Shown here one piece after another: positions 2,890 to 47,396 of a DNA stretch of 64,000 nt. The notes under the pieces were generated by a model that did not search any database, was not told where the DNA came from, and saw nothing but the letters and a program-made list of their open reading frames with translations. The first letter of the stretch is position 1. Every line of letters begins with the position of its first letter. Source of the DNA: Antedon mediterranea (lineage: Eukaryota > Animalia > Echinodermata); assembly GCF_964355755.1 (NCBI RefSeq), contig NC_092680.1, positions 21,895,045 through 21,959,044 on the forward strand, in the 5' to 3' direction. Made by a program: the position numbers and the translations under genes.

Positions 2890-5800
2890 ATGGCCAAAGA
2901 TCCCTTGTGTAAGTACATACTTGATTTATTTAAAATTACATCATATTCATACATAACATTTTCAGTATTCAATTTTTTGTTCAGATGATAGGGTTTTACC
3001 CGATTTTATTTATGCGAACATAGTACAGTAGTAGCATACTGTAAATTATTTTTTAGTTGTCACTTTATTTTTTTAAAGTGAAGTCAATAGAAACATTTTT
3101 CTTAGTTTTGAGAGTGACGTAAAATACAGCAAGTTGTTTAGTTTTGAGAGTGACGTAAAATACAGCAAGTTGTTTAGTTTTGAGAATGACGTAAACTAAA
3201 ATACAGCAAGTTGCTTGATTAAAACTGTTAAATACCATTTTGATAATTTTTACAGTTACTTACAGTAGGCATGTTGACACAGATGCAGTTAAAGTATGTC
3301 ATATTATTGTGCAAAAGTGATAGCAAAGTAAAATTGTGAACTGCAGAGCAAAACTTTATTGGTACAGTGCAACTTTCGGTCCTTAACAAACATTGTGTTA
3401 CCATCATAAGAATTGTTTTAAATGGATATACTGTAGTACGAATGAAAACGTTAAAATGGTTCACTCAACCGGTTTCTTTTATTCGGTTGCAGAATGGAAG
3501 ATACAAAGACATAAAATTTGACAAAGTTGTACGTTAACACAGTGTAACTTCATGGTGTGAACAGGGTCTTAGACAATTGTTAGATAGATTTTAGTTGTTT
3601 TTTAACAGGGTGTGAAGAATGTGGAAAGAGTCATATAGGGGATTGTCCAGTTCATGGTTCGTTAACTAGAGTGAGAGATAAAGTAATACCGTCTCACGCT
3701 AGACTCACACTACCACATCACATGGTTTTAAAAGAGTTGGAACTTAGAACTGGAAACCAACAAAGTAAGTATCACATTTATTTATACAAAGTAAGTCTTA
3801 CATTTATTTATACTGTATAGTCCAAATGATGTGCTGCCTTGTGTAACCCAAACAGTTTGAAGGTTTTGACAGCAATATGCTACTGTACATCATATCATAA
3901 TTAGATATTACATGTAGTAACATACATTATCAGTCATTAATGAGGCAAACAACATTATTCCTGAATCATACACAATTATTTTATACCAGCAACATCATAC
4001 AAAGAAAGAAGTACAGTTTGCAATGTCTTGTTATAGCTAGCATGATCCTGGTAGTAACTGTAAAGGATAGTACTGACTTGTGTAAGTTCACTATCAACCC
4101 AAATAGTTTAAAGATGTTTAAAGCAACACACTATAGTATCATTATCATGATTAGATAATATTAATATTTAATGTAAGTACTAATATTTGTCATTAAGAGG
4201 CAAACAACACCCACGCAATTAATAACAGCAACATGATATGAAAGAACTACAATGTTTTTTATTAATACAGCAGCTAGCATGTTATTAACTGTAAAGTAAT
4301 ATAGTAAATATAATATAAATATTTTTAATAAGTGTTAAATACAAAATTTACAAATATACATACAGAAGGAGAGCAGAAAACTAAGGTAGAAGTTCCTGTG
4401 TTTTTACCGGGGTCATGCCCAGTTGAAGGGTGTTTTGACCAGTTGAAGAGTGTTTTGGCCAGTTATAGGGTCATGTCCGGGTCAGTTAAAGAGTATTTTG
4501 GGAAGTTTTCTATCCAATATTCCCATAAAGCTTGCATACAGTTATTATGTATAACATTGTGTAAGTGATTGTAACTCACCACTAGTTTTGTCTTTGGTCA
4601 AATATGAAGAGTGAAATAATTTGGATCGTGAAACTTTGTGTTAAACACAACTTTGCAATAAAATACCCAATGTACAGAGTTTTGATTTAAACCTGTACAG
4701 TGCCAACTACAGCATTTGTAGTCTTTATTTTTGCCAGGTTTCGTGTAGACATATAGGCAGCATGCAATGATAATATAATACTTGAATCTAAATGAGTAAT
4801 CACAATTTATTTAAATTATCCTTTGCCTATTTCCAATGTTTTGTTTCATTATCAACGTTGGCTGGATTCCGACCTATGTTCACCGTGCAACGATACAGAA
4901 CGCGCACCAAGGCTATTTTATTTATCGTTATCGTGATTATTGTTGATTTATTTGTTGTAATCTATATTTGTGTTTTAATTAATGTATTAATGTACCACTT
5001 ACAGATAGTACTGTGACCCATCAGTTAGTACTGTGACCCATCAGTTACTACTGTGACCCATCAGTTAGTACTGTGACCCATCAGTTAGTACTGTGACCCA
5101 TCAGTTAGTACTGTGACCCATCAGTTAGTACTGTGACCCATCAGTTAGTTTTTAACAATAAACAGAAATGTAAAGAAATTCTAAAGCACCTGGTTGTGTA
5201 CTGATAAATGATAAAGATGACGAAATCTGTGAGAATGAGTAAAAACTATCCAAACCTTTTTAATAACAAATTTTTTCTAATCCGTAAATTACTAATTTTC
5301 ATTTAGATGATGTTTTTTGGGTTTATTTTGAGCCCTTTTTTCAATGACAAAAGAGCTGTAGAGACTCATTGATGTTGACTTTTGGTACCTACCTATATTA
5401 CATTATATAACATATTTCATAGAATCACAGTTTTTTTTAAATAAAATAACTATTTTGAATAAAATGGTTTAGCTTTTGCTAAATAAAAGGTTTTGTTTAA
5501 TGTTTTATCGCATAAATGACAGACTTGTTTAATAAAAAATGTCACAGAATTTTAGAAATTTACCAAAATTCTACTAATTGTGATCTATTCATCTTAAAGA
5601 ATTAGCGCCTTTTAAAGAGAATATTGTCAGTTGGTTTTTTTGTTAATTAAACATATTTTTACTTGATTGTATCAGATTGCTAGAATTGAGACACATTTGA
5701 AAATTACTACGGTAAACCATATTAAACATTTTATTGATAATAATTGAAAAGTATTTCCATTTAGGAAATCGCTAATAACACATTAATTTAAAACTTGATT

Positions 5801-8800
5801 GATGTTTGGAAATTTGCCAAGATACAAAAAACCCTCAAACAATAGATTTATTTGTAAGATTAAGAAATAAAATTTCTCTATCTATTATACAAATCTGTAA
5901 CAAAAATTGAAATTAATTTTCATAATTATGACAAAATTGATGTCTTCATTTCAAATTAGTAAAAGTTGTAAAATATTAACAAATTTCGCATTTCTTAGAG
6001 CTGTTTTCTGTCTACAGTATCTCTGTAGTATTTATTACAATCACAAGTATGTAACAAACAGTACAATATATCCTACGTGTTGGAAACCTAAAATGAAAAA
6101 TGTTGCAACCCTTTCATCCATTTTAAGACTTGTGTTTTAGTTTGTGCCCAATCCTAGCTCAACCAAGTTTAGCACCATAAATTAACATGTGGTTGCTAGT
6201 TTTGTGCCTTTTATTTATGTCACTATACATCCCACACAGCTTGAGATTGATGGACACCTTTAATTGTGTTTTATACTTAAACTAAAATACTTGTAATCTG
6301 GTTGAATGGTGAACGATAACCCAAAGTTTGTTAGTTACAAGTAGATTTTAACAATTGTCAATTGGTTTGATTTCAAACAAAACAAAGTATATTACATGTA
6401 TATATTTATTTATCCCAAGTCCCAGCTAACAGTCATAAGATTTGAACCAGGATTGTATGACTAAAGGTTCAGCATCTCACATATTAATTTATATAAAGTT
6501 TTTATAGAGTAGTTTGATGTGTTACTCATCTGACTATATATAGATAATTTGAACGTCGTCGTACAGTTTGTCCCAAGTCCTGGCTAACGCGTCATCGTAG
6601 CTTGTGTCATAACGTGCCATTCTCTTATCACATGGGGTGTCACATGTAGAATTAAAAGGTCTACTGATGAGTAAAAATTACAAATATTTTATTAATTGTA
6701 AAATATCTGTAATTACTGTCCATAACTGGGAATTTATTAGCGTTATTATAAATTGATTACAATAATCTTTTTCTGAAAACAACAAATAAGTGTAACGTTA
6801 TTGTTATTTATATAATGAATAACTTTACATTGTATGATCTTAATTTTTTTGGTCAGGTATAATTCATTTTTCTTTTGAGTCGTGGTACTTTTGGCTATTT
6901 CTTGCCTACCTAGTAGTTTACCTCTCTCTGAAGTAAGAATAATTGTGAAAAGAAGAAATTCCATTGAGCACCCCTATTGGATAATGTTATCATCCGTGTA
7001 CTGGGGCTCAAGTGGGCGCCATCCCACCTTGTAGTAGTAGTAGTAGTTAGTATCATCATTTCTTTTCGTAACGCCTTATAATTTTGTTTATACCTTTTTT
7101 CTTTTAATTTATATTGTTTTATTTTATATCAATTTATCAAATGATCCATTTCCATATTTATTTGAATAGAATTGTAATATCTTGCATAATTAATTCATAT
7201 AAACAAATGGTTTATATCTGACAGGCATCAGCTGGTAACCTTCACAACCATCAAGGTTGTCAAGTGTGAACTTGACCTTCCAACAGAAAGGTCAAGTTAA
7301 GTAGAAGGGATGACTATAGGTTCAATATCTAATATATAATTACAGTATTTATAATATAATATCCTTTTTTTTCATCTACACTGATGATTATAAATAACAG
7401 TAACACATTGATTAATGTTTATGATGAATACTATACTGTTGCTGGTGTTGTTGTACAAAGTGCTGGTGTCTTTTAGTCTCCTCACTTCTTGCTTAATACT
7501 AATAATATGATGACTTATAGTAGTATTATCAAATACCTATTTTGTATACCACTACCAGTATATCATATTATACTGGTATATTATATTTATTTTTATATAC
7601 CTGAGTGTGAGTGATTTATAAATAAAAAAAAAAATTCTTCTTGCCAGTTGTAATGATTAAAGGTAACAATAAAATATCAAACACTGTGTACAGTATGTTT
7701 CTACAAAACTTCATTACAGATCTTGGAGCATCTTGGTGTTTTACAGGAATTTACCTTAAAACCTAACTTACCTTTTCCTTGAGTGACACAATTCTTAAGT
7801 GGCACTTGTAAGCAATTACCATGTCTCCAGTTTTTATTAACTGCAATCAAATTGTACAGTGATCATAGCATTAATTTAACATGTTTCGAGTGATCTAAAA
7901 AAAACTGTCAACTAAATTTTACAAAAGATTATAGAATTCGTTTTGGAATTTATTTGACAGGTCCTGTTTTTAAATTATGTAACAGATCTAACTTGAATAA
8001 ATTATAAACGTTTTACAAACTGTTTTCTGTTCTTTTACCCTATCTAGAGCCAGGGAGAAATTGCAATTGTAAACTCTCGCGACTATAGAGAGTGGGATTT
8101 CTGATATAAAATAGTAGTTCATTGTTTATTGAAGATGATTTATGTATTTACAGTATAATAAACAATCTGTTTTTGTTTTGTCATTTCCAACAGTCCTTGG
8201 TGTTTTTGCCCGGAAGCTAATACAACGTCGAACTCAGTTTGGTCCCTTCATAGCACCCAGATCTCTGACAAAGGTGGAAACAAACAACAATGATACTCAC
8301 AGACCTTCTTTTAAGGTAGGAATATTGTCCCCCTGAAAAAAATAATTTTTGTTGTTGAATATACCATTTTAATGTCACATAATACAGTAGTTATCCACTT
8401 TGACCAAAAGTTGGATAAAAAAAAAATGTACACAAAAAAAATGTAATTTAAAGCAAAAAATAGTCAAATTGACTGGAAGTCAATGGGGTTTTGGTTGAAT
8501 TTAACAGTTTATTTTGTCTTTTCATTTATTTTTTACATTTTTTATGAAAACTGAAAAATGGCATATTCAAAGACTAATTTTTTTTAAACTTTTTATGTTT
8601 TTGGGGGACAATACATCTTTAATAAATCTTATCTTATTATAAAACATGAGACAGAACAATCAAACATTGCTGATGCCTATTCTATGCATCAGAGTGACAT
8701 CTCTGGCGCTTAACAATAGAGGCGTGATTAAGCATGTGTGCTCATCTCTATCTTTAAGTTCATTGTTCTAGTCCCTGGATTTTTTTTTCTATGTCATCTA

Positions 8801-11800
8801 TAAGTTGACACTTAGAATGGCATAATAATATTCTGGAGGTGTTGAGAAGTTTATTAAAATAAGCACATCTTTACTACTTAACTCATCATTATCTTTAGTT
8901 ACGTTAATAATGAGTATTGCCTCTCATGATCTGTGAGAATGTTTACTGCGACTGCATTTGCAAACGTATGTGGTATGGTTGCAATGAAAATGGCCAGATA
9001 TCAGATGTCAAAAAATACAATTAAAATATGCAAATTTAACAAGGATTTTTCAACTATATATTTAAGATGTAGATCTCCCAACATCCTCCCTAGCTTATTA
9101 TTTCATAATATTAATTCATATTTGTCAGATTTTTCAAAATAATATGCAGCAGTCGATCCTTGACACTAGTAGTGAGGATGTGTGTAATTGGATGATGTTT
9201 GTAAGACCTGCAGAAGAATATTTTGAACAGAATGTAGTAGCGTATCAGTGGAACAATGACGTTTACTTTACGACATCAAAGGTAAGAATTAAGAATCGCA
9301 GGAAAATACTTTAAACAGAATGTAGTTGCTTACTAATAAAATAGTGATGTTTTCTTTACGACATCAAAGGTAAGTCTACGTTCTTTGTAAGAATCGCAGG
9401 AGAATACTTTAAACAGAATGTAGTTGCTTAAATCAATAAAATAATAATGTTTATTTGACGACATCAGGTACAGTAAGTCTGTTAGGCCTACCTTCAGATG
9501 AATATTCTTAACAGAATTTTGTTGCTTATTATCATTTTATTGCTAGTACAGTAACTGTTAAGCTGTATGTCCGTTATGGGCATGTGTGTGGTATACTAAA
9601 GCATATCAGTCCAATAATGTACTCATTTACAGTAGTATATTCAATTATTATTTGTGTTTTGTTTTCAGGCAATTCCACCGCACACAGAATTAAAGGTCTG
9701 GTATGCGGCAGAGTACTCCAAAAATATGCAGACAAAACTATTATACAACCCTTTAAGTACAACCAAAACAGGTAAGGATTACTGATAAGTATTAATTAGA
9801 TAATTTATTTCATTACTTTACTCATTGTGTTCATCCCTTCATTCAATCTCTCTCTTATTAGTTAATTTATTCACTATTTCATTACTTCATTTATTAGTTA
9901 CTGTAATTCCTTCATTCATATGTTAATTCATCCTTCACTTTTTTAGTCAACCATTCATTCCTTCATTCATATGTTAATTCATCCTTCACTTTTTTAGTCA
10001 ACCATTCATTCCTTCATTCATATGTTAATTCATCCTTCACTTTTTTAGTCAACCATTCATTCCTTCATTCATATGTTGATATTCCTTCACTTTTTTAGTC
10101 AACCATTCATTCCTTCATTCATATGTTGATTCATCCTTCACTTTTTTAGTCAACCATTCATTCCTTCATTCATATGTTAATTCATCCTTCACTTTTTTAG
10201 TCAACCATTCATTCCTTCATTCATATGTTAATTCATCCTTCACTTTTTTAGTCAACCATTCATTCCTTCATTCATATGTTAATTCATCCTTCACTTTTTT
10301 AGTCAACCATTCATTCCTTCATTCATATGTTGATTCATCCTTCACTTTTTTAGTCAACCATTCATTCCTTCATTCATATGTTAATTCATCCTTCACTTTT
10401 TTAGTCAACCATTCATTCCTTCATTCATATGTTGATTCATCCTTCACTTTTTTAGTCAACCATTCATTCCTTCATTCATATGTTAATTCATCCTTCACTT
10501 TTTTAGTCAACCATTCATTCCTTCATTCATATGTTGATATTCCTTCACTTTTTTAGTCAACCATTCATTCCTTCATTCATATGTTGATTCATCCTTCACT
10601 TTTTTAGTCAACCATTCATTCCTTCATTCATATGTTGATTCATCCTTCACTTTTTTAGTCAACCATTCATTCCTTCATTCATATGTTAATTCATCCTTCA
10701 CTTTTTTAGTCAACCATTCATTCCTTCATTCATATGTTAATTCATCCTTCACTTTTTTAGTCAACCATTCATTCCTTAATTCATATGTTAATTCATCCTT
10801 CACTTTTTTAGTCAACCATTCATTCCTTAATTCATATGTTGATTCATCCTTCACTTTTTTAGTCAACCATTCATTCCTTCATTCATATGTTAATTCATCC
10901 TTCACTTTTTTAGTCAACCATTCATTCCTTCATTCATATGTTAATTCATCCTTCACTTTTTTAGTCAACCATTCATTCCTTAATTCATATGTTGATTCAT
11001 CCTTCACTTTTTTAGTCAACCATTCAATCCTTCATTCATATGTTGATATTCCTTCCTGTCGTGAGTCAACCATTCATACCTTCATTCATATGTTGATATT
11101 CCTTTCTGTCGTGAGTCAACCATTTACTAATTCATTAATTAAAATTAATTCAAACATCATAAAAAGTTAGATGTTTATAATTAGCAATATTTTAAACTGA
11201 AAAAAATTTACTATATATCCTCGGGTATAATCCCACTTCAGGTCTAATCCCACCCCTTACTTTATGTTTGATTTCACAAACAGGATAGAGCCCAGTATTG
11301 ACTTTTGGTCTACAGATGTAGGCCTTTTTTTCAGATGAGGTTTTACCGATCCTACTTCCTAAAGCCGGCCCAATTTCATGTTCTAGGAAGGTGGGATTAT
11401 ACCAGAGATATTATATGTTGTATATTTTAATAATACATACATATTTGCTTGTTTTGAAATCTATATACATTACTTTTGGTAAATGAACTAATGCATTATT
11501 TGATCCATTTGGTCACTCTTGTAACAACATAGTGTATTGGTGTAACATCACCTAATGCATTTGATTTTGTTTTTTTTCAGAATCACCTAATTTTTCTCGA
11601 CAATCAACGTCTCAGATGGGTGGAAGCCACTTATCAACACCAGAGTATGATTTTACTGACCTCAATGAGTTACCTCAAGAACCAGAATTCAAACCTGAAA
11701 TATCACTATTACAATCTAATTTGAATGTGCACCAGGTACTGTACTTTATCTTTTCCATCAAATGTTTTCATTTATTTGATCAAAGAACTTATAACACAAG

Positions 11801-14013
11801 AATCTCCTGTTTGTCCGAAGCGCGTAACAATTTCGAAAGGCATTGTGGGATAGAATAGAGCTATGGGTGGCGCCATTGTGAGCCATGGAGTAGGGCGCCC
11901 GCATCAAATTAGGAAGTCAAAATCATAGAGGGGATCTGCTAATACTCTTAATACTCTAGGGGGGGTAGAGTAATTGACTGAGGAGTAGGGAGCCCGCATC
12001 AAATTAGAAAGTCAAAATCATAGAGGTGATCTGCTAATACTCTAAGGGGGGGGGGGGGGTTAGAGTAATTGACTTCCTAGTTTGGAGGGGGCGCTGCTCC
12101 ATGCTGTGAAATGGCGTCGCCCAGTTTGACCTTTTAACCCTGTACATCCGATACTGTGTTTTGAATGCAAATTGAAGAACAGGAGATTCTTGTGTTATAA
12201 GTTCTTTGATTTGATACAATCACCAATTTCAGTGGTAGAACTTGAAAGTAAACTTAATTAAACTTTCTTCACATTATTATTGTTTTAAAGCAAAAAACAC
12301 AAAGTTGGTGGTCTTCATTTTATGCTTTGTATTATTTGTATGCCATTGGATGAAATAAATGTTTGTTGAATTGAATTGAAAGTACAGTTTGACAAGAACT
12401 CATTTGATTTCTAAAGTTTTAAACTGTGTTTTCTGTCCCTCTGTTTGTAGGCATCGGCTAGTTTGCAATCCCCTACACTTTCAGACCCTTGGAAATGTTC
12501 AACCTGTAATCGAGGATTTGGAACTTTTTCACTTCTTGAAGTACACACATGTGAAACGGCAACAAAGGTTAGACGTGGACGAAAACCAAAGTCAAAGAAA
12601 TTAATAGACACATCCACGAGTCGAGAAGGACCGCTTACACGTGCAAGCAAACAGATTATACTAAAGACGGGTAAAGATAAGTTGATTGGTCGCCATGGCA
12701 AAGGACGTAAACACAAGGAACAAGTTACGTACTCGTGTGATCACTGTTCAAAAATTTTTTTGAGTATGGAGAAATTAAGAACTCACAGTTATACACATTC
12801 TGGTGAACGGCCATTTGTTTGCACAAAACCTGATTGTAAAAAAGCATTTATCTCAAGTTATAAGTTATCACGTCACATGGCAACTCATTCACCTGATAAA
12901 ATTCATCAATGCCAATATTGCGACAAGAAATTTCACCGTAAAGATCATTTAAAAAATCACCTGCAGACACACGACCCGAACAAGGAATCATTTCGATGTG
13001 AAAATTGTAGCAAAGTTTATAACACAAAACCAGGCTTCAAAAAGCACATAGCAATGCATGCTGCAGACGCAGGTGAACTCACTTGTAAAGTTTGCGACAG
13101 AGACTTTGATAGTACGGAAATGCTCATAGAACATATTAAGGTGCATTCTGGGAAGAGTAATGGTGCAAAAGAGAAGAAACATAAATGCGATGAATGTGAT
13201 CGTAAATTCTACACGCGGAAAGATGTGCGGAGGCACACGGTGGTACATACGGGTCAGAAGAACTTCCTGTGTCAAACGTGTGGTCAAAGGTTTGGACGTA
13301 AAGATCATTTGGTGAGACACACGCGCAAGAGTCACAATGGAGAACAACTTGGGATGAAGATGGGTGAACATTTAAGAGCAGTTGGCACGGCAACGGTTCA
13401 TCAGATACTTCAACAGCATCTGGATGACCTTCCTCCGCTAACGATATCAAACTACGGGTCAAATACAGCATCTTCGTCGCTCGGTCAACCTCCGCTTAAC
13501 GAGGTTGACCTTATCAAAGTTCCACCCATTCCTCAAGTTAGATCTCACAACCGAACGATGACACGACCTCATACAGAAACAAGATTATCACCAAAGATCG
13601 GAACGCAGGTGAAAGAAGCTTCTGGGATGGCAATGGAAATGAGCATGATGGAAACGGATAGAGATAAAGATATGCAAGATTTGTCTGACACTTTGAATCC
13701 TAATAGCTATGATCTTGGTCGGTTACTAGGATTTTTACCGACAAACCACCCAATGCAGCAAGCTGGTAATCCCCCTCACCCGTCACGCGAGCAACTGCCG
13801 CCGCCAATGAAACAGTCTCCTAGCACTTTACCTCAGACCTCAACTTATGTAACGCAGTCGGATCTACCTCATTCACAGCCTATGGCTATTCCTAATCCAG
13901 GAATTCAACCACAGACAATCCGATACCCCTCTAATCAAAGTGGTATGAGCCAGGGTCAGTATAACCATCCAATGATTCAAGGGCTTCCACGCTTTCACCA
14001 AGCTTTTCAGTGA
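2890..14013 (+). CDS. PLAG1: PR/SET-domain-containing PLAG-family zinc-finger transcription factor (pro-orthologue of PLAG1/PLAGL1/PLAGL2), 7 coding exons
   Basis: Phase-consistent GT-AG exons 2890-2908, 3609-3764, 8194-8315, 9129-9281, 9669-9771, 11581-11735, 12451-14013. They encode [17 protein letters not shown] (PR knuckle) and [44 protein letters not shown] (PR/SET). Then come seven C2H2 fingers closely matching PLAG1 ([36 protein letters not shown]) and the PLAG terminal LPRFHQAFQ. Confidence 0.9.
3102..3213. repeat. 36-bp tandem repeat, about 3 copies
   Basis: TTAGTTTTGAGAGTGACGTAAAATACAGCAAGTTG repeated. Confidence 0.85.
5006..5149. repeat. 20-bp minisatellite, about 7 copies
   Basis: Unit TAGTACTGTGACCCATCAGT. 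Confidence 0.95.
8319..8618. mobile_element. Non-autonomous DNA element with TTAA-flanked termini (Kolobok-like); related ends start near 52402 and 55201
   Basis: Right end GGGGGACAATACATCT-TTAA, degenerate left end TATTGTCCCCC. TTAA-AGATGTATTGTCCC recurs at about 52398 and 55197, and the 55201 copy shares internal sequence in reverse orientation. Confidence 0.5.
9907..11125. repeat. 51-bp intronic minisatellite, about 24 copies
   Basis: Unit ATTCCTTCATTCATATGTTAATTCATCCTTCACTTTTTTAGTCAACCATTC. Confidence 0.95.
11213..11414. mobile_element. Small degenerate TIR element (MITE-like)
   Basis: ATATCCTCGGGTATAATCCCAC at the left end is an imperfect inverse of GTGGGATTATACCAGAGATAT at the right end. 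Confidence 0.45.
11781..12208. mobile_element. MITE with CAAAG termini and 7-bp TSD (P-superfamily-like)
   Basis: 31-bp perfect TIR CAAAGAACTTATAACACAAGAATCTCCTGTT; ATTTGAT on both flanks (11774-11780, 12209-12215). Confidence 0.75.
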
Positions 14014-20941: not shown

Positions 20942-23680
20942 TTAATGTTTAAAGGATCTAAATTGTACAGTTATGCCGGTAGGGGCAAGAGTGCCAAGCT
21001 TTACAATTATTCTTTCTTCTATAATTCTACGAGATGTCTCAGAACCATTACATACTTTAACACCAGAAATAGTAATATCTGAAAGGGAATGCTCATTATT
21101 ACAAAAATGGGTGGCTACAGGTAATCCGGGAGTCTTTAGTTTAATAGACCTTAAATGTTCTACAAACCTATCACCTAACCTGCGTTTAGTTTCACCAATA
21201 TAAAGCATATTACATTTACGGGTACATTTAGTACACGAAATACAATAAACTAGATTTCTAGTGGTGCACGTAATACGATCTGTGATAACATAATTACCAG
21301 AAGGTCCTACTATTTGGTTTGAACATGAAACGTAATTACATGTCGAACATCTATTTCTATTACATTTGAATGTTCCAGTTGATTCATTACCTTTGTTTTG
21401 TAATTTAGATTTAACTAAAGTGTCTTTAATGCTTTGATCACGTCTGTAAGCTATCATGGGTGGTTCTTGAAAAATATCTTTTGTAGCGGATTTATTTATC
21501 TTCAGTCAAAATTGAAAAGTTATCGCGGACAATGTTAATAACCTTCTTATTCATAGGATGATACGTGAGGACTAGAGGTATGCGGTCACAAGCATTTGTA
21601 TTATGTGTAGGTTGTAATGTGTCCTCGTGCGTTAACTGGCAAACTTTTCTTAGAGATTTCACAGTAATGTCAGATGGATATTCGCGTGCATTGAAAAAAT
21701 CGATCATCTCAGATGCTTTGATGTTAAAGTCATCATCATCGCTACATAAACGTCGAAGTCTAACAAGTTGCGAATACGGTATAGCATTCTTACAAGCTGG
21801 AGGATGCGAAGAGTTGTAATTTAGATAAGTGTGCGCGTCAGTATCTTTGTAGTGGACGGATGTAGAAAGACCAGGTTTATCAATAGATAAACTAATATCA
21901 AGGAAAGGCACACACTTGTCAGAAATTTCATGAGTAAACTTTATAGCAGGATGAAAATTGTTCACAAAGTTAATGAACTCATTAAGTTCATCTAAAGTTC
22001 CCGACATAACACCAACACAATCATCAATATACCGTTTGAATAAATCTGGTTTCTTTCCCTTATAATCTCGTAACACATTCTGTTCAAAATACCCCATAAA
22101 GAGGCAAGCAAAGTTAGGTCCCATTTTTGTACCCATGCTTATCCCAGAAACTTGCCGAAAAAACTTCCCATTGAAGTTGAAGGCTGTAGTATTAAGTACA
22201 AGTTCAGCGAGACGTAGTATTGTCGATGCGGGATATTTAATTGAATTATCTAGTTCAATAAAATGTCTCATTGCGCTAAGTCCATCTTGAATAGGAATTG
22301 ATGTGTATAAGGCCGTAACATCCATTGTAAAAAGATAAGCACTCGCAGATGAAAATGTATAATCTTTAAACAAAACTACAGCTTCTTTGCTATCCTTGAT
22401 GTAGGTTGGCAGATTTTGTACAATTGGCTTCAAGATTCCATCCAAGAACTCGCTAATAACAACTGTAGGCGCGTTACAAGCGGAAACAATAGGTCTACCA
22501 GGACTGTTAGTCTTGTGTATTTTAGGTAACATGTAAAAGCTAGGACAAGTGGCGTCAGAATTAATCAATATATGGGCTGTAGAAGGAGCTCTTTCTTCTT
22601 AATCATACTATTTACAGTCTTCTTAACAATACCAATATCAGAATCAGTAGGGTCGGCATCAAGTGGCTGATATACGTCAAGATTAGAAAGTTGTCTTTCT
22701 CCCTCTGTAATATATAGGTCCCTTCTCCAAACCACAGTAGCACCACCTTTATCTGCTCGTTTAATAACGTAGTCATGATTACCTTTAAGTGATCTAATGG
22801 CAGCTTGCTCTCCTTTTGACAAATTACAAATATTCTTTGGTTGTTTTAACTTAAGCTTGTTAATCTCTCGTTTGCAAGTATTGACATACAGATCAAGTTC
22901 AGCGAACATACCTTGTGGCAGTGTCCAGCTAGATGGCTTCTTATTCAGCAACTGTAATTCATCTTTTGTTGTTACATTTGTCTGATTCTTGCCGTGAAAG
23001 TTTGCTTTGAGTCGTAAACGTCTGTAATATTGATCCATGTCTTGTTTAAGCTGGAAATCATCAATCTCTTTCCTAATAGGAATAAAAGATAGACCCTTAG
23101 AAAGAACAGAGCGTTCTTCATCTTTAAGAGGCAAATCGTCAGGTATAGTCACAACTAGTTTAGACGTATCAGGGTGTGCTCTCGTTGGTCCTACCTCACC
23201 AATGGAATACTCTCTACAAACACGATTAGCTTTAAGTAATTTAGCTTCTGTCAATGACTTGTAATACCATTTGTTTAATCCATGGACGATACTTCGTATT
23301 TTGTCAAATTCGTAGTTGGTACAAGCTGCTCGTAGGTTGGTCTTATGATGTACCATTTGTTCATCATGATACGCAACTTTCTTTAAGTTCATCTGAATGC
23401 TCATACGCATAAACCGTCTGGAAACAGCATTGATACTATCAGATATGAACTTCTTATCAAAATAAGCAAAGGACGGTGACCAGGTAGATCTAAATGACTT
23501 GGGTATGACGTTCCATCTTAGACAAGTGGACAGAAAATAAACATTACTAGAACATCTTGCCTTACTGAACGTTGAGGTTCCAAAGCAAAAACCAAATGTC
23601 TTCACACATGGAGAATACAGGCTTAAGTCGTTGTTGAGAATCCGACGCGCTTGTTGTAAAACTTGCTTGGAATTGGCCAT
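20942..23680 (-). pseudogene. PLE polyprotein (RT-GIY-YIG) broken by two frameshifts
   Basis: Three ORF pieces: 23680-22565, 22568-21492, 21457-20942. Likely 1-nt loss near 22587 and a 4-nt TAAA duplication near 21492. Confidence 0.85.
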
Positions 23681-23859
23681 ACTTGTTATAAAACAAACAG
23701 GTATAGCTATATATATATATATATAGCCTATATAGACTAATTTTCACTTCACTCAATCAATAACAATAAAACAGATGGTATTAAAAAAATTAAAGAAAGT
23801 GCGAATTTCAAATAATACATTTCATAAATATATATATATATATATAGCCTATATAGACT

Positions 23860-26005: not shown

Positions 26006-29000
26006 ATGTTGCATATATTCGTTGTGAATACTGGTACGATGGTTACCATGGACATGAGCCACACAATGCGCAGGTAAGTATCTTTTAAACTATTCAGCGA
26101 ACTTATTTATTTCTTTAAACAGATTCTGCACTCACTCCATACAATAGAAACAGATTCTGCACTTATTCCATACAATAGAAACAGATTCTGTACTCACTCC
26201 ATACAATACAAACAGATTCTGCACTCACTCCATACAATACAAACAGATTCTGCACTCACTCCATACAATAGAAACAGATTCTACACTCATTCCATACAAT
26301 ACAAACAGATTCTGCACTCACTCCATACAATAGAAACAGATTCTGCACTCACTCCATATAATACAAACAGATTCTGCACTCACTCCATACAATACAAACA
26401 GATTCTGCACTCACTCCATACAATAGAAACAGATTCTACACTCACTCCATACAATACAAACAAATTCTGCACTCACTCCATACAATAGAAACAGATTCTA
26501 CACTCATTCCATACAATAGAAACATATTCTGCACTCACTCCATACAATAAAAACAGATTCTGCACTCACTCCATACAATAGAAACAGATTCTGCACTCAC
26601 TCCATACAATAGAAAAAGATTCTGCACTCATTCCATACAATACAAATAGATTCTGCACTCCATACAATAGAAACAGATTCTGCACTCACTCCATACAATA
26701 GAAACAGATTCTGCACTCACTCCATACAATAGAAACAGATTCTGGACTCACTCTATACAATAGAAACAGATTCTGCACTCACTCCATACAATAGAAACAG
26801 ATTCTGCACTCACTCCATACAATAGAAACAGATTCTGCACTCACTCCATACAATAGAAACAGATTCTGCACTCACTCCATACAATAGAAACATATTCTGC
26901 ACTCACTCCATACAATAGAAACAGATTCTGCACTCACTCTATACAATAGAAACAGATTCTACACTCACTCCATACAATAGAAACAGATTCTGCACTCACT
27001 CCATACAATAGAAACAGATTCTGCACTCACTCCATACAATAGAAACAGATTCTGCACTCACTCTATACAATAGAAACAGATTCTGCACTCACTCCATACA
27101 ATAGAAACAGATTCTGCACTCACTCCATACAATAGAAACAGATTCTGCACTCACTCCATACAATAGAAACAGATTCTGCACTCACTCCATACAATAGAAA
27201 CAGATTCTGCACTCACTCCATACAATAGAAACAGATTCTGCACTCACTCTATACAATAGAAACAGTTAAAATAAAACAAGGAAACAATTGTTTACAATTC
27301 TCAATCAATGATCAAACAAATTCAGTAGTAGTGTGCATCTTTTAATAACATCATTTTCATAGACAATTTCTTGCTTTTATTGATATCTATCATGGTGGTA
27401 GTTCTTTGTTGTGAGATTTATATTAAAATGATTAAAGTGAGTAGAGGCAAAAACTAAATCTTGTTGTTCGTTGGTTTTCTTTCTCTTAGTGTGCTCGATC
27501 TACAACATGCTATTCATAAAGAGTATGGCATTGCAGTTGATAAACAAGTTCTTCTTGTGAGTGGAGGTCAGAGTTTAGATGTACAGCAGAGAGTTTGTAC
27601 GTTCAATGCTGGCACTGTAAGTTCACTTCAAAGTCATTGAAATGATTATAACTTTATGCAACTTCTGACGAAAACAGGTTTTACCTGTACCCATGCAAAC
27701 TTGTACCCAAATGTTTGCTTACTCGTACACATCAAGGGCGGGCTGATAGTGATACCCAAGTTCAATAATGCTGAACAATAACTAAATAAACTACTTTGTT
27801 AAAAAGTATATAATATGTACAGACTCTTATGAAAAAAAAAACAAAGCTATCTAGCTTTATACTGTGGTTTTGTACAGAATGTTCACGTATGACAAGTTCA
27901 ATTAATTTGTGCTTTATTTACAATACATCTGTCCTATTACAATAGCATAACATATTGTACGGTCTGTACCTGCCAGACACTGATCCATCTTAGTACACTA
28001 TCACACTTTTTCCTCTCCTTCAAGAATTTATGGCAGCAATTCCACAATAATATTAATACAATAATGAGAACAAAAATTATATTATTACGTATAGCTACTA
28101 AATAGTTAACATGATGCGTTAGTCAGAGTATTACTCTCAGTGTTAAATCTCAGGGTTAACATCATATATTGGTGCGTTGAGTTTACAGAACCTGATAACC
28201 TTATATACAATATACAGTACTGTACAGTACAATTTATTATTGTGCAATTTATTTATCCCATTGGAGTTCTTTGTACTGATTGGGCATTTTGGATAATGTT
28301 TCCATATAACCATCTTCATCAAGTGTTATTTTATCTTGATGTTTTTGATTTGAAATAGTATAATAGCATGGTTCCATTGATGTTTCTCCTACATTTGGTT
28401 TTATATACCCATCGTCATCAAGTGTTATTTTATCTTGATGTTTTTGATTTGGGATAGTATAATAGCATGGTTCCATTGCTATTTCTTCTACATTTGGTTT
28501 CATATAACCATCTTCAACCTCATTTGGCATTTGGCTAGTAGTACTCTGGCCTACTATATTGGTTACACAGTAAGACCCAGTTGGTCTGTCTGTTGCATTG
28601 GGCCATTTCTTTCTTATTTTGTTTAGAAGAGTGTAGCTTGAAAATACCAATATGACTAATAGGCTTATACCTAGAATGACAGACAATGCCATGACAGCAA
28701 TATCTGCTGATGTTGTTTCATGTCTTGAAGCCACGTCAGTTTCTGATGTTTCATGCCTTGCTGTACCTCGTATATCTTCAGAGGTATTTAGTGTGTTTGA
28801 AGCCATGTCAGTTGCTGATGTATTATGTCTTGTTGTAACTCGTATCTCTTCAATTATGAATGAAGCCATGTCAATTTCATCCTTTGTTGTAAATTTCTCA
28901 TTAGCTGTAGGTGACACAGACTGACCTGTAAACTTATTTGTTAATGACACTGCTGCTTGTTCAGTTGTCATTGGAATCCGATTGCCAACGACACATTCGT

Positions 29001-31911
29001 TTGAATCTGTTGATCCTTCTTGTGTAGCTCTACATATAAACCATTGCTTACTTGTGACAGATGCTATAGACACATCATGTATCAATGTGTTTGCTTCAAA
29101 TGCCATCTGACTCTTTGATGTCAAGTAAGTACCTGTATGATCTATCCAGTGGAGTGTTATTAGGGGATTGCCTGGTGAACATGTACAAATCAATCTCAAT
29201 TGTGAATCAGTTATTGTAATGTCAAAACAAGTAAGTTGAGGAATTGAGTTTCTAATTACCAATGCTACATCTGAGGTAGATGGAAGTGGTATTGGTATTG
29301 AAGGACCTTCTGACATAAAAAGCAAATAACAAGTATATGTTCCACTGTCACTTTCATCAATGTTATTAACCTGTAGAGTCTGATTATAATCAATGTTGCT
29401 AAGAGATGATACTCCATATACACTATACTTGGCTGGATCACTCAATACCATGTCATTATCTACAATTCGAATAGTGTCTTTCCACCATATTATCCAATGG
29501 CCATGCACTGCTTCATAAGTCTCCAGTTGTACATTGCAGGTAAAGTTGACAGAATCAGTCCCAACATCAGTAATAATGTAATTTGGAGTAACTGACACAT
29601 TGGAGGCTATTGCCATTTGTATGAGTGTGTAGATTATAATGAAAATAATCATAAATTTTGCCATAATTTCCTTATTACTCTGAAAGATGAATTTATATTT
29701 TGATATGATATTTTACACGCATTGTTTGGTATTCATAAACTGAAAAAGTATATTTCTTGAAAATAACATTTGTTTACTTATTATAATGTTAAAACAGATT
29801 CTATAGGCTTGTATTTTAATTCAATCTTAAATTATTTAAATGCTGTTTACAAGTTAAAGTTGGACATTTTTAAAGTACAAAAAACCTAAACAAAGCAAAC
29901 TTCACATATAAATATAATTTAAAAAACAAAACAAATCATACTGTACCCTGTGTGGTTTTTAGAAAGTTGTCATCTTTCAATACTTCCTTGTATCGTTCCA
30001 GGTGAATGCATTTCTACCAAATTGTTGTAATTACATTTATTATTATCCAATGATGCGTTTACTCAATTTGATATTAGGTCAGAGGTGATGAGTACATTCT
30101 ATCAATCAATAGTTGAAAGTGTTGTTACTTTATCCTTAATGATAATATTGTATGGTACAATGGCTGTTCCAATGAAGATAAACACAAGTTACACAAGGTT
30201 GTTAAACGTCCCTCAAAAATCATAGGCATACCCCAACGTTCTATTGTTACTTTGTATGCTGAATGTTTACTCAGAAAGGCAACATTGATCATAAATGATC
30301 AATACCATCCTGGCAACCATCATTTCCAAATTATGTCTCACTTACAGTCACAAATTGAGATCGATACTTGCAAAAACTAATAGGTCAGTTTCTTCCTTCT
30401 ACCCAACAGCAATCCGTGCAATTAATGACACACGTTAAGTTTATACTTCCCCGAAACTTTGAAATACTGGAATGGGATTTAGTTTTTTACCAACCCCGAA
30501 ACAAGTTCTAGAAATGCCGGGATGGTGTCCAGCGGGGGATAGTTTCACCCTGTAGTTTAAGTTCTATATTTGTTGTTAGCCGAAACTATTCAAATTTATT
30601 TCAATGTAAATGTGTTTTATATGTTTATAAATGACAATACATTGACTTGACTCTCTTTATTTGTTTAGGTAACAAAGGCTAGCACACGGTGCTGGAATGG
30701 TGTAATAATATGTAACTTAGAAACGTTTGTGAATATGATTAAGAAAGCCCTACCTACCTATATATATAATAATAATAATACCACATTTATATAGCGCCCT
30801 TTTCATGAGTAATCATGCTCAAAGGCGCTTTACAAGCATTATTACCCCAGTATTTTTTGGGATCAAACACGTATGGAAACATACTCCCATAATGCAGCCG
30901 GTAACCAGCGCAATATATATAAATCCAAAGGCAAATTACTGAAAAAAATGACAATGCTGTGGGTATCAGTGGCTGGATCTCAATGGAGATACAAAAATAA
31001 AAAGCGAAAAGCTAAATCAAAACGATAAAGTAAACAGCCAGAAAAGTTAGTAGAGCTTTCGGGCAACACTAGCCCTTCATCAGTGCAAGAATATATATAT
31101 ATTCAGGTTGAAATTATCAGACCGTTAGGATAGAGTGCTCAATACCAAGGTAGAGCATAAATAAATAAAATAACAGCAGAAAACTTGGTTACTTCATTGT
31201 TTTAATCACTACAAATTTGTTTCGTACGACCAGCATGTAGCTGGCCGCACTCTTCAGGTGAAATATAAAACATAAGTGACACAGTTGTCTCATAGTGCTT
31301 AATAGAAGTGAGTCATCAGGAAGTCGTATACAATAGCCTATTGTTTTAGATAAACTATTTGGATCTGCAATTTAGTAAGAATTTGGTTAGGACATCTGCA
31401 TATCAAGCAGGCGGTCCGAGTTCGAGTCTCGGTTGGGGCGACTTTTTCTCATTCTCACAGATTTCCTCATCTTTATCGTTTCAAATTAATTAATTAAATT
31501 TCAGTATATCACCGGGCGGTTTAGAATTAATGTTCTTTGCCTGATTTGTTTATATATATAAAAGTATCTCTTCGGAGATCCCGCCTCGTGAATAGAAATA
31601 CTGTAAGATGAGGGTGTATCAATTTGATCTCTGGTGCGCGTGCGTTCAACTGAGGACTAGTGCTGTTCCGCCGTACCACGCCGAGAGTGTTAAAGAGTCG
31701 CTATCCAATCGAGTTCGAACAATACCATGAAAGCCCCAGTGGTCTAATGGTTAGGACATCTGCATATCAAGCAGGCGGTCTGAGTTCGAGTCTCGGTTGG
31801 GGCGACTTTTTCTCATTCTCACAGATTTCATCATCTTTATCGTTTCAAATTAATTAATTAAATTTCAGTATATCACCGGGCGGTTTAGAATTAATGTTCT
31901 TTGCCTGATTT

Positions 31912-31949
<38 letters not shown>

Positions 31950-34900
31950 CAAATAGGTACGTGTTTCTTATTGAACTCCGGTACAGGTTTGCCATTTCAT
32001 GTATGAGTTGACGGGTACGAGTTAATTGCCATGAGTGTTTGTTGGATTGGATATCCAGCACCCTATACTGTATATTCTACACATAAAAGACACAATTCAA
32101 TCAACTTTTGGCACTCATCTTTGCATGGATATGTTTCGTTTGTGTGGATAATGATTTTTATAAACTGCTTATCTCTGTTTATATCTTTAATCACCTTTAC
32201 ATTGTCAAAATAGTGATTTAAATTAAATCTAATTGTTTATTGATGTTATTTAATTTATCCTCTTAACTTTATATTATTAATACATTATTATTATCATTTT
32301 AATGATTTTTCTTGTGTAGGATACAAACCCTATTTATTTGTTTGATAAATCTTTAATTGAGCAAGCAAACTATCAACATGGTAGTTCATTGATGGAAGAT
32401 GATCAGCAACAGTTAGATAATGAGCTGAAAGAACAGGTTGAAGCATTCAGACACCTTCCACCTAGCTATAATGCTGTTAGTTCAAGAACGCAAATGGCCC
32501 TTGTAAGTATAGCCTCTTAGCTTACTAAGATTAATTTGAATATGTGATCTTTCTTAAAGAGACTGGCTAGTTTTACAGTAGTCATTTTATATTCAAATGA
32601 ATGGAGCTATAGCTTGGTTTAACATGCTTTCTGTTAGCCCAGAATTCAATCTTCCTAAGTAAAGCCTCTAATATAGTTTATAAGCATCCTGTAAATTACC
32701 AGTTTTTTCTAGTGTGTATGAAATATAATAAATTGCTGTAGTCAAACCTAAATATTACGGTGGCTGATTTCCGCCAAAGAAAAAAATTATTTTATAATAA
32801 TACGGCGTTATAACGCCCTAATAATATAAAATAATTTTTTTCTTTGGCGGAAATCAGCCACCGTAAAATATAGTGTAAGCATTTTATTTATATATATACA
32901 CATGTTTTTGCCATAATCTGCTAAAATAATAAGTTATTGAATTTATCTACTTATATAGCAACTACACGATCGTGCTAAAGAAAAAGTGCAATCATGTGAG
33001 AATGTGGTTAGAGATCAACATCAACAACAGCAAGGATGGATGGCTGTTGTTGCTAACTTGGAAGATATCTCTAGGTAAGAAGAAGAAGCAATGAAACATT
33101 CATGACAATATCAACATCCATGACAACAATCAATAACAACATTCATAATAATCTAATGGCCAACATTTATAATAATATTAACATTAGGCATCTACTATGA
33201 AGTTCTATATAGCAGTACATTACCGGTTCATCACCTCGTACAAATAAGTTGCGCAACAGAATTAATCCAGCTTCTTTTTATCACTGAATGAATTGTGACT
33301 TTTTATTTTGTCAATGTTTTGTACTTTTTTATTGTATTGTATGAAAATCTATTTTCTATGTATATTTATTTGCAAGTGAAAATAGAAAGGCAAGGAAAAG
33401 AATAAGAAGGAAATAATATTATGTAGATAGTGTGCTGTTGAAATTATATTAAAATATTGTCACCAGAATGTATTCTTTCTTTCTTTATTTCCATTTACAA
33501 AATCATAAACATACATAAATAGTTACAAAACAAAAGAATGGAAAGTATTGCATAAAATATTGTGTTTTCAGAGCATTCAAACTTCGAACAAGTTCATTTG
33601 AGAATAGTTTGACTGATTTCATGTCAAAAAGAGAAGACTACTTCAAGATGTTATCCGAGTTCCCAGATGTTCTAAATCAACTAGAGAGAATTCCATTGCC
33701 ATCAAACCTGGTTGATTCTGCACGGCTTGAGAGTGAGAGTGATCGTGATAGCATGACCCTAATGAGATGGATTAGTAGACAGGTTACTTTTTATTTAATA
33801 ATTAGAATTATGTTAATTATAGGTACTGTGTATTCCTTGAAGAATATTTATATATTTCTTTTTGGTTAAATCATTTTTTTTTACTAGTGTAATAGTTATA
33901 TTCATAACTATTGTTAATAGTTATAATTGTGCTCAATAGGCTATTTAACATATTTTTATTTAAGTCTGCTTAATTTATAGTACTTATTGTATATGTTTTT
34001 TGTTTCATACCTTTAAGTGGCAACTTTCGTTGCTGTTGGTTTTGATGAAATGAAATGCCTATAATTTAATTATACTTTTACATCATTGTGTCAAAGGTGG
34101 TGTGAAATTGCTTATTAGCTTCAATTTCATAAAGCAGGCTATGTTGTTTTTGTAGGATGAGCGAAGTTCATTAGTTAACATGTACCAATTATGTGCAAAG
34201 TCGCTGGAGCAGTTTGAGCCAAACACGCTTCATGTTTTTAGCTCTGACATTAATGATGTTAAAGGTAAACAGCATTTGTATGTAATAATATTTGAAACGT
34301 CCTTTACAAAAAAATGGAATAGATGTTTTTTAAATTGACATGTACATTGTTTCAGGGGCAGATTGATTGCTTTGAAGAAAAGTAGTGTTAATTAAAATTG
34401 TCTATTTGTGACTCCCATCCCCCCTGTTTTCAACATTCAGGCCTTTTGTTGAGTGTGTTTAGTACAATATGATGGCCCTCTATATTAAACTGTCCTGGTT
34501 GTAGCATGGCAGAATTCCTCAAAGGTTATATCCATAGTCATTGTAAATGTACAAAATAATGTCATTTAGTATTACTTCTGAATCTAAACATTTCATTTTA
34601 TTATACCAGTGAAAGTTGATAACCCAGGTATGAAAGAAATCAAAGGCCTTGGAGACAGGCTGTTTGGATTAGAACAACTGTTAGCACAAGCAAAGAAGAC
34701 AAGGCAAGACCAGGGAGAGATGGCCCAGGTGTGTGCATTAGGTTTTTACTTCTAGTCCACATCTAAATAACATAAAGCATGTTAGCAAGTCTGTAGATGT
34801 TTTCACTGGGCAATCTAATGTTCAAATACTGAAAGCCAAGCCTATAGTTCCAGTATGAAATATGATGACAGGAATTGATGTTATATTGTCAATTTAAAAC

Positions 34901-45944: not shown

Positions 45945-47396
45945 CCCTTCAGTTCACTGAAATGACCATCAATGGAACCATGTCACCTGTAACAAAAGGC
46001 GAGCAATTATCACACACTCAAAAAATGCTACTATTATTTTTATCAATTAAAACCTAAACGTCATTGTATTTGCAACAAAAATATTTTAATGATAATTGTG
46101 ATGAGCTCAAAATGTTAATATGCAAACAAATTAAAATAATGGCCTAACTAGCTTATTTACTATGTTTAAGTGTTAATTAATAATAATATATTACTGTATT
46201 TTCAAATGAAATTTTAAAAACACAGCCTGCAGCTAGCTGCTGAGTTTCTATCTAGCCGACTCTAGCCTACTCGGCAGTACTACACAGTAACGGATTGCCG
46301 TTTACACTCACTGCATCCATATCGAATAGGCCAATTCGAGCTGGGTATTTACTAAACTACTAAGAAAGTAGGTCGTACTGTATGTGTAGGGCCTCCTGCT
46401 CTCTACACTCGACTCGACTCTAGTTTAGGCCTGGCCCTGCATGTACGTGGGCAAGCCATCCCCGCGAGAATATTAGTATTTATTAATTATTAGTATTACG
46501 AATTAAACGCTATTATTATTCATTTATTTTAACTTACTTACATGAAAAAATATACACACTATATGCATAAGATGCAGAATATAGCATATGTTTAACAGAA
46601 AATACTGTAATATGTGCAGGCCTAGCCTAGATAATTTTATAGTGGGACGAACTGTAGAGACACACAGGGGGACGCTGTATTTACGCCCTCTTTTTTATGT
46701 TTTGGAAACGGTATGGGCGGCTGATTAAGTCAAAACAATCAAAACCTTTTATTGTACAATATTCATAAACAGTAACATCACGTTCTTAATTAAATACTAG
46801 AATGTTTGCTAGTGTAGTAATGTACTCGGAGCATTTCCCTGTTCAGTTTTTACCTTATTTAAATGTATTATTAATGAAATTATTTAAATAATCTTATTTA
46901 CATTTTTGTACTTATATTGGCTTATATTTATAGTTTAGTTATTTTATTTTCAACTTATTGGTGTTTTACACTGTTGGCTTGAAATAAAGAATAAAGAATA
47001 AAGAATTATTTTTTGATATTTTAATAATATGAACGTGTAACAATCCTGGTTCATTAATACCAGCACTTGTTGATATTTGGGGAAATATGGATTAATCTGG
47101 TAGGCCTATCTTTTACTGGATAACTTCGGTTTTAGAATCACCGATGCGTGACGTGTCGAATCCCGTGTCGAATTAATCAATAAATAGATTTTATTCGATG
47201 ATGACCATGAAAAGTGTATGCCAGTGCATGGAGTAAACTCCATGGCCAGTGTCATGCAATACATAGAATAGTAATTTAAAATCACTTTATTTTCATCCAA
47301 TTTTATAAATCAATAGGCCTATCAATTCAGCATTGTCAATTAAATTTCTTTATATCGGATACAAAAATAAAAGACAGTTTTCGTGTACCACCACCG

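Follow-up and report, generated by a model that had tools for sequence, protein, structure and literature searches.

FOG1/ZFPM1 and ZNF408/PRDM17 are late-recognised members of the PRDM family, each a known zinc-finger factor that proved to be a PRDM protein, and isoforms that lack the PR domain, such as EVI1, are oncogenic and have a biology of their own. PRDM10 and PRDM15 constitute the Prdm10/15 subfamily in the 14-subfamily survey of Vervoort et al. (PMC4760075). In the PLAG family, comprising PLAG1, PLAGL2 and PLAGL1/ZAC1, PLAG1 reads a GRGGC core with fingers 6 and 7 and a G-cluster with finger 3 (PMC12764072). We analysed a stretch of 64,000 nucleotides from the crinoid Antedon mediterranea (GCF_964355755.1, contig NC_092680.1, positions 21,895,045 to 21,959,044; hereafter the window) and describe a gene at positions 2890 to 14013 in which a PR/SET domain precedes the PLAG fingers. 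It is very probable that this is one spliced gene for a PRDM-type factor with PLAG fingers, and that the PR-bearing form was the likely ancestral PLAG of protostomes and deuterostomes.

The encoded protein combines features of both families. Its seven-finger array and the contacts of fingers 2, 3, 6 and 7 are like those of vertebrate PLAG1, PLAGL2 and therian PLAGL1/ZAC1, and its C-terminal signature is like that of PLAG1 and PLAGL2, whereas about 330 additional amino acids (aa) at the N-terminus, made up of a zinc knuckle, the PR domain, a post-PR finger and a basic patch, distinguish it from the vertebrate family. PRDM10 and PRDM15 have the nearest PR domains and a similar zinc knuckle and single post-PR finger, but they carry 10 or more fingers in a different array. 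Identical architecture was found in PR-bearing PLAGL1 or 'PLAG1-like' models of sharks, turtles, crocodilians, birds, amphioxus, hemichordates and echinoderms, all of which are products of automatic annotation under mixed names (PLAG1-like, PRDM10-like, PRD15 partial). As with FOG1 and ZNF408, a known zinc-finger factor thus proves to be a PRDM protein. Unlike FOG1, ZNF408 and EVI1, the human PLAG paralogs appear to be permanently without a PR domain, so that the PRDM link is visible only in other animals.

Structure of the crinoid gene

Seven exons were chained into a single gene in which all introns have GT..AG ends. An open frame of 756 aa was obtained from one of the four boundary combinations tried; the other three were ruled out by many stops. 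The spliced product matched an NCBI entry for Antedon mediterranea, the 'uncharacterized protein' P0001, at 756/756 residues. An acceptor is present upstream of exon 1 at 2861/2862, and the ATG is preceded by two in-frame TAG codons. Exon 4 alone had PRDM10 (3ihx) as its best solved-structure match (E 9.8e-13), and exon 6 had no Pfam match. The features of the gene are as follows; pLDDT is the predicted local distance difference test and ORF an open reading frame.

2890..2908, + strand: exon 1, first coding exon with the start codon, aa 1-6; model identical to P0001
3609..3764, + strand: exon 2, PR zinc knuckle (C8, C11, C19, H22) and PR lead-in; PF18445 E 0.005 for the exon alone
8194..8315, + strand: exon 3, start of the PR domain; F77 at PRDM9 Y276; PF21549 profile positions 14-44
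9129..9281, + strand: exon 4, PR core; R125, and F146 at PRDM9 Y341; PF21549 E 1.7e-15
9669..9771, + strand: exon 5, end of the PR domain; Y162 at PRDM9 Y357; PF21549 positions 102-122
11581..11735, + strand: exon 6, weakly conserved linker; low pLDDT
12451..14013, + strand: exon 7, 1563 bases, 520-aa ORF with post-PR finger, basic patch, seven PLAG fingers, C-terminus and stop
12496..12552, + strand: post-PR CCHC finger, aa 252-270, C252-x2-C255-x12-H268-x-C270; modelled at pLDDT ~87
12571..12591, + strand: basic patch RRGRKPK, aa 277-283, read from the sequence
12730..13335, + strand: seven C2H2 PLAG fingers, aa 330-531
13984..14010, + strand: PLAG C-terminal signature LPRFHQAFQ, an ending shared with coelacanth PLAG1, PLAGL2 and amphioxus

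Contigs of sequencing run X1, whose RNA status is our guess backed by the spliced joints that the contigs contain, were aligned to the gene; those of runs X2-X4 are genomic. One X1 contig carried joints 2/3 (3764/8194), 3/4 and 4/5, and a second carried joint 6/7, all with GT..AG ends. The first contig ends at 9771, and the next consists of the last 30 bases of exon 5 followed by exons 6 and 7, with exon 7 covered in X1 contigs as far as 14326. The first Met of exon 7 is residue 106 of the exon and lies inside finger 1; therefore the full array needs upstream coding exons.

Read from its N-terminus, P0001 consists of a zinc knuckle, a PR/SET domain, a post-PR finger, the seven fingers of PLAG type and the PLAG C-terminus. 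Pfam placed PRDM2_PR (PF21549) at aa 52-171 with 116 bits against a cut-off of 27, and a SET match scored 28 bits. The knuckle (PF18445, aa 6-30) was matched at E 0.0036, which is weaker than the curated cut-off; its C8, C11 and C19 are kept in 28 of 29 rows with a PR domain and PLAG fingers (PR-PLAG rows). The protein thus has the N-terminal PR domain, a SET subtype, that defines the PRDM family, a C2H2 array C-terminal to it in the same protein (joint 5/6 being short-sided), and the knuckle ahead of the PR domain that is found in a subset of PRDM proteins. A structure was modelled with AlphaFold from a deep alignment of 60 rows, in which aa 1-180 were mostly above pLDDT 85; an 18-row version left the PR domain below 50 and was not used. 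The top structural match of the modelled PR domain was PRDM10 (Z 19.6, root mean square deviation 1.7, 124 residues aligned), followed by PRDM4 (Z 19.3, deviation 2.0, 134 aligned), whereas classical SET enzymes scored Z ~10.

The finger region is of PLAG type. The array was 63-70% identical to those of vertebrate PLAG proteins, its seven fingers have PLAG spacing, and contact residues -1, 2, 3 and 6 of fingers 2, 3, 6 and 7 are the same as in PLAG1 of porpoise and coelacanth. In a tree of finger and tail sequences (44 rows), the ambulacrarian and amphioxus genes fell outside the vertebrate PLAG1/PLAGL2/PLAGL1 clade. The crinoid gene, which also carries the C-terminal signature, is therefore the single pro-orthologue of PLAG1, PLAGL2 and PLAGL1. 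With the same contact residues in fingers 3, 6 and 7, the crinoid array is predicted to bind the bipartite G-rich site of PLAG1, that is, GRGGC and the G-cluster.

A profile of the post-PR finger matched PR-PLAG proteins and 0/110 PLAG1/PLAGL2 rows. A single post-PR finger is also present in PRDM15, PRDM10, PRDM4 and PRDM9-like rows, and a similar basic patch follows it in 3/3 PRDM15 rows examined. The core of an AT-hook is Arg-Gly-Arg-Pro; the crinoid patch reads RGRKP and that of the mussel orthologue P0133 reads RGRP, and no AT-hook Pfam family matched P0001 at E up to 0.01. Because finger and patch are common to PRDM proteins, they appear to be inherited PRDM features and not a newly gained AT-hook. 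RRGRKPK is likely a putative nuclear localisation signal or minor-groove contact.

An earlier sequence-only reading of the window had described six small exons spliced in phase onto the PLAG finger exon and encoding a zinc knuckle and a PR/SET domain, in a PLAG orthologue whose PR domain is PRDM10/15-like. The 756-aa frame, the identity with P0001 and the X1 joints agree with the first point, the PRDM2_PR match with the second (the knuckle being weak), and the trees, including a PR clade supported at 98/94, with the third. The extra finger and RRGRKPK that it had placed at the start of the last exon are present; for the comparison with an AT-hook, no Pfam match was found at E up to 0.01, and PRDM15 has such a patch as well. 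Of the two junctions that it had proposed for checking, 11735/12451 was recovered in X1 and 9771/11581 was weak, with 27 letters on its short side.

Two repeats lie within the introns. The 3′ end of exon 4 and its donor are tandemly repeated into intron 4 (9210-9470, period 88-98), creating decoy donors; splicing in X1 is at the first donor. A 51-bp tandem array of 23 copies (9906-11094) occupies most of intron 5. Exon-skipping isoforms of bird and turtle PLAGL1 (P0231, P0101 and P0109) have breaks at the sites of crinoid introns 1, 2 and 4, which suggests, from these protein sequences, that intron positions are common to the crinoid gene and bird/turtle PLAGL1.

Relationship of the PR domain to PRDM10 and PRDM15

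The PR tree contained 69 rows and 166 columns of knuckle and PR sequence, with Candidula and Pinctada left out; the label 'PRDM15-like' and part of 'PRDM9-like' are weak assignments of our own, and the PRDM4 label was assigned through a match to an entry of the Vervoort supplement. PLAG, PRDM10 and PRDM15 PR domains formed one clade (98/94) against PRDM4 and PRDM9-like rows. Within it, PRDM10 and PRDM15 grouped together at 84/94 with no PLAG row inside, and all 29 PLAG rows were excluded both from PRDM10 (98/92) and from PRDM15 with PRDM15-like (96/88). Thus the PLAG PR domain lacks the nesting in either clade that membership of the Prdm10/15 subfamily would entail, and the array is PLAG-type rather than PRDM10- or PRDM15-type. 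Separate PRDM10-type proteins exist among the database representatives. The PLAG PR domain is sister or paraphyletic to PRDM10/15, both placements being compatible with the trees. The deuterostome PLAG PR domains grouped together (97/90) in an order that mirrors species phylogeny, sharks and sauropsids adjoining amphioxus, which argues for inheritance and against separate gains. Separate trees for the two halves of the protein, a check suggested by the sequence-only reading, therefore placed the PR domain with PRDM10/15 and the fingers with PLAG.

PLAG may have originated when a PRDM10/15-like gene duplicated or when the PR cassette of such a gene was captured; the arrays are no closer than generic ones. 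The second account, in which PLAG did not arise as a PRDM10/15 duplicate but through exon shuffling that brought a PRDM10/15-type knuckle-PR cassette to a separate finger gene before the protostome-deuterostome split, is rather unlikely. It draws on the scores between PLAG fingers and the post-PR regions of PRDM10/15/4, which at ~80-113 bits are no higher than those for unrelated arrays, and on the lack of any non-bilaterian PR-PLAG protein among the 20 representatives named. However, the arrays of PRDM subfamilies differ equally among themselves, PRDM15 has the same order of PR domain, single finger, RRGRKP-type patch and array, and the representatives come from the best 150 of 1868 matches, a set that did not reach non-bilaterians.

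Distribution of PR-bearing PLAG proteins

A set of 179 PLAG rows was scanned with a PR profile built partly from these same proteins. The profile detected a PR domain in 9/13 invertebrate-deuterostome rows and, partially, in the single lamprey model (1/1). Among vertebrate paralogs, PR domains were found in PLAGL1 (17/55) but in neither PLAG1 (0/82) nor PLAGL2 (0/28). The PR-bearing PLAGL1 proteins came from sharks (7/8) and from turtles, alligator and birds (10/10, two partial), and those without from salamanders (0/3), a platypus short isoform (0/1), therians (0/29) and unnamed rows (0/4).

We also searched 1.84 billion representatives with an amphioxus isoform without the array, and the best 150 of 1868 matches yielded 143 new proteins. 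Among these listed matches, 17/143 combined a PR domain with a post-PR region best matched by PLAG, and every one of the 17 was a named protostome; P0425, whose best PLAG match reached only 43 bits, was excluded before this count. With Owenia and Potamilus included, at least 19 protostomes have a PR domain and PLAG fingers (12 molluscs, 3 arthropods, 2 tardigrades, 1 annelid and 1 brachiopod), although the arrays of the two tardigrade proteins are partial and match part of the seven-finger profile. Squamate, frog and teleost PLAGL1 and cnidarian PR-PLAG proteins were not among the matches listed, which is not evidence of absence. The PR region of deuterostome orthologues outside crinoids was 48-65% identical, and in the ESM Atlas a 347-member 'PLAGL1' cluster carried PRDM2_PR in 98%. 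Because protostome proteins also have a PR domain and PLAG fingers, the layout was likely already present in the protostome-deuterostome ancestor. The survey of amphioxus, hemichordates, echinoderms and protostomes that the sequence-only reading had called for thus recovered PR-PLAG proteins in each.

No description of a PR-PLAG link was found in the literature searched (subscription journals excluded). The word 'PLAG' occurs 0 times in the main text of the Vervoort survey, even though its data set includes amphioxus, chicken and soft-shell turtle (PMC4760075). In four of its five supplementary files, one of them available in part, three PLAG finger motifs gave 0 matches and a fourth gave 4, all in PRDM5 and ZNF510. 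The accessible portion of a bivalve PRDM survey makes no mention of PLAG (PMC10451705). Birds were said to lack PLAGL1 and Drosophila to be without a clear homolog (PMC3575645); contrary to the statement on birds, birds do have PLAGL1, and a crayfish and two hemimetabolous insects have homologues. The layout was therefore already visible in public gene models, and as a PRDM subfamily it is apparently undescribed. We conclude that PLAG is an apparently uncatalogued PRDM subfamily, real and widespread, and that the PLAG genes likely descend from its PR-bearing form.

Database entries commonly label the PR half of bird PLAGL1 'PRD15' or 'PRDM10-like', partial (P0301, P0335 and cluster mates). The bivalve orthologues P0133, P0338, P0339 and P0365 have an insertion of ~160-380 aa within the PR domain.

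Probable losses of the PR domain in vertebrates

According to the sequence-only reading, no PR domain is present in PLAG1, PLAGL1 or PLAGL2 of vertebrates, which shark, turtle, alligator and bird PLAGL1 contradict, the lamprey model carrying part of the domain. Its suggestion that PLAG is a PRDM offshoot stripped of its PR domain in vertebrates was right in deriving PLAG from a PR-bearing gene and wrong in that the loss is not vertebrate-wide. Instead, the losses are paralog- and lineage-specific.

In the finger and tail tree, PLAG1 and PLAGL2 paired (100/98), and PLAGL1 was recovered with the sharks included (99/97). The PR-bearing shark 'PLAG1-like' genes are thus PLAGL1, since they fall in this clade. 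Pairing PLAG1 with PLAGL1 was disfavoured (approximately unbiased (AU) test, p 0.011). From the PLAG1-PLAGL2 pairing, a single PR loss on their shared stem would follow.

In the platypus long isoform of PLAGL1 the post-PR finger is still present, and the second half of the PR domain survives in decayed form (PF21549 E 1.3e-5). This remnant is identical to the turtle sequence at 21/50 positions, compared with 33/50 for crinoid and 30 for annelid, although the platypus fingers are nearer to those of turtle than the crinoid or annelid fingers are (156/206 positions, compared with 134/204 for crinoid). Marsupial and eutherian PLAGL1 proteins begin five residues ahead of finger 1. When a galago model was read upstream of the therian ATG, an in-register match to the platypus linker was found (9/25 identical, 3/10000 shuffles). 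Opossum PLAGL1 is biallelic (PMC3507640) and the imprinted CpG island of PLAGL1 is eutherian (PMC3217256); thus loss of the PR domain from PLAGL1 likely preceded imprinting.

We propose that after the vertebrate genome duplication the PR exons would have left the coding sequence on the PLAG1/PLAGL2 line and would have been retained in PLAGL1 of sharks and sauropsids. On the mammalian line the PR domain of PLAGL1 would have decayed, as in the platypus remnant, and gone in therians, where a new start methionine would have arisen at finger 1. The PR-bearing form is likely the original one of the family, and PLAG1, PLAGL2 and the mammalian imprinted PLAGL1 likely lost the domain later. We regard it as probable that PLAG represents an overlooked PRDM subfamily, the fifteenth, whose age equals that of the protostome-deuterostome split, that human PLAG1, PLAGL2 and PLAGL1/ZAC1 are PRDM genes fixed in a PR-minus state, and that the PR domain of PLAGL1 disappeared step by step on the mammalian stem, shortly ahead of imprinting, leaving relics of coding exons in the 5′ untranslated region.

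This reading would join two well-studied families that are treated apart in the literature searched. It would trace the PLAG oncogenes and the imprinted ZAC1 back to chromatin-regulator genes, add a subfamily to the PRDM catalogue, make bird, reptile and shark PLAGL1 a different kind of protein from mouse Zac1, and explain the misnamed 'PRDM10-like' and 'PRD15' database entries. If PLAG is indeed a PRDM subfamily that lost its PR domain, chicken PLAGL1 would be a ready model for the role of the lost domain, which is directly testable by adding or removing it.

The salamander PLAGL1 models P0235, P0237 and P0300 keep the post-PR finger, and one salamander model keeps the last piece of the PR domain (19/26 identical to turtle).

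Predicted function of the PR module

In the mechanism that we propose, fingers 3, 6 and 7 would bind the GRGGC core and G-cluster, the C-terminus would be a transcriptional activation region like that of PLAG1, and the knuckle, PR domain and post-PR finger would serve as a module for co-regulator docking or activation. The catalytic tyrosines of PRDM9 are residues 276, 341 and 357 (PMC5519329). The tyrosine register was set by the spacing of 65 and 16 residues in comparison with 6nm4, and the structural alignment to 4c1q ends with residue 162 on 357. The crinoid protein has F77, F146 and Y162 at these positions, so that only one of the three is Tyr, as in PRDM15. All three tyrosines were present in 0/29 PR-PLAG domains; jawed vertebrates have two, with Tyr at the Y276 position where the crinoid has Phe. 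The Y276 column contained F in 10 of the 29 domains, L in 9, Y in 5, V in 3, H in 1 and M in 1. A column that is Asn in 6/6 PRDM9-like rows was Arg in 27/29 PR-PLAG domains, as in most PRDM10 and PRDM15 rows. PRDM15 keeps Y357 only and was hypothesised to catalyse a single methylation step (PMC9861158), and the N-terminus of PRDM10, including the PR domain, activates a reporter (PMC7368010). Because of the missing tyrosines, the retention of Y357 alone in PRDM15 and the activation by the PRDM10 N-terminus, we favour as fairly likely a PR module that acts as a docking or activation surface and not as a PRDM9-like trimethyltransferase.

The alternative, with the same gene and history, is that the PR domain is an active low-order lysine methyltransferase, such as a monomethyltransferase, brought to its targets by the PLAG fingers. 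The modelled fold is complete, the Y357 position is Tyr in 28/29 PR-PLAG domains, a finding that goes against a non-enzymatic step, and five jawed-vertebrate rows have Tyr at Y276 as well. The single methylation step hypothesised for the one-tyrosine PRDM15 (PMC9861158) would fit, and loss of a single tyrosine need not abolish activity (PMC5519329). However, Phe occupies the Y276 and Y341 positions alike in the crinoid, the residue in the Y276 column is free to vary, and Arg has replaced the PRDM9-like Asn in 27/29 domains; we consider this enzymatic role unlikely.

Observations that weigh against the proposed gene and history

Several findings count against a single crinoid gene with an ancestral PR domain and later losses. 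Joint 5/6 in X1 has GT..AG ends, but its short side of 27 letters is below the threshold of 31 and the joint is weak; joint 1/2 lies outside X1 coverage, and the RNA support comes from one run of one study. When the tree was left unconstrained, the PLAG PR rows did not come together as a single clade (0% of 200 bootstrap trees), although constraining them together was not rejected (AU p 0.08). Absence of the PR domain from PLAG1, PLAGL2 and therian PLAGL1 is read from annotated proteins. Saccoglossus, Carcharodon and three salamander rows are without the domain too, probably as a result of short gene models. The upstream galago match was significant for platypus only (1/11 targets). Trees of the neighbouring MYB, SGK and EYA genes pair the 6q and 8q copies (PMC3575645), which conflicts with the PLAG1-PLAGL2 pairing and leaves room for two PR losses.

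Many bird annotations divide the locus between a 'PRD15/PRDM10, partial' entry (~212 aa) and a 'PLAL1, partial' entry (474 aa), 202-aa PR-only PLAGL1 isoforms are annotated in three birds, and joint 5/6 is short-sided, which might suggest that a PR-only gene and a neighbouring PLAG gene were joined by read-through or by gene predictors. This is very improbable, given that an X1 contig carries the last 30 bases of exon 5 with exons 6 and 7, that exon 7 has no methionine ahead of finger 1, and that genomes annotated independently of one another, from those of arthropods to those of birds, show the two parts joined.

Other features of the window

Two of the neighbouring genes would have counterparts near human PLAG1 if the following assignments are correct. 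The kinase listed first resembles Mos, although no search gave it a name; human MOS adjoins PLAG1, and if the kinase is Mos, its synteny with PLAG would be ancient. The coiled-coil gene may be RB1CC1/FIP200-like, and human RB1CC1/FIP200 is on 8q near PLAG1. The retroelement is presumably Penelope-like.

50163-51464, + strand: single long ORF, Ser/Thr kinase, Pkinase E 1.4e-46
33519-39200, + strand: multi-exon coiled-coil gene with no Pfam match
20942-23743, - strand: retroelement remnant with three ORFs, RVT_1 E 8e-7
28249-29712, - strand: single-ORF Ig-domain protein with a likely signal peptide, a membrane helix and a tail in which tyrosine motifs are repeated
43626-45953, - strand: 775-aa ORF with dispersed C2H2 fingers and a terminal repeated His-x-Ala-x-Ser-Gly-His pattern

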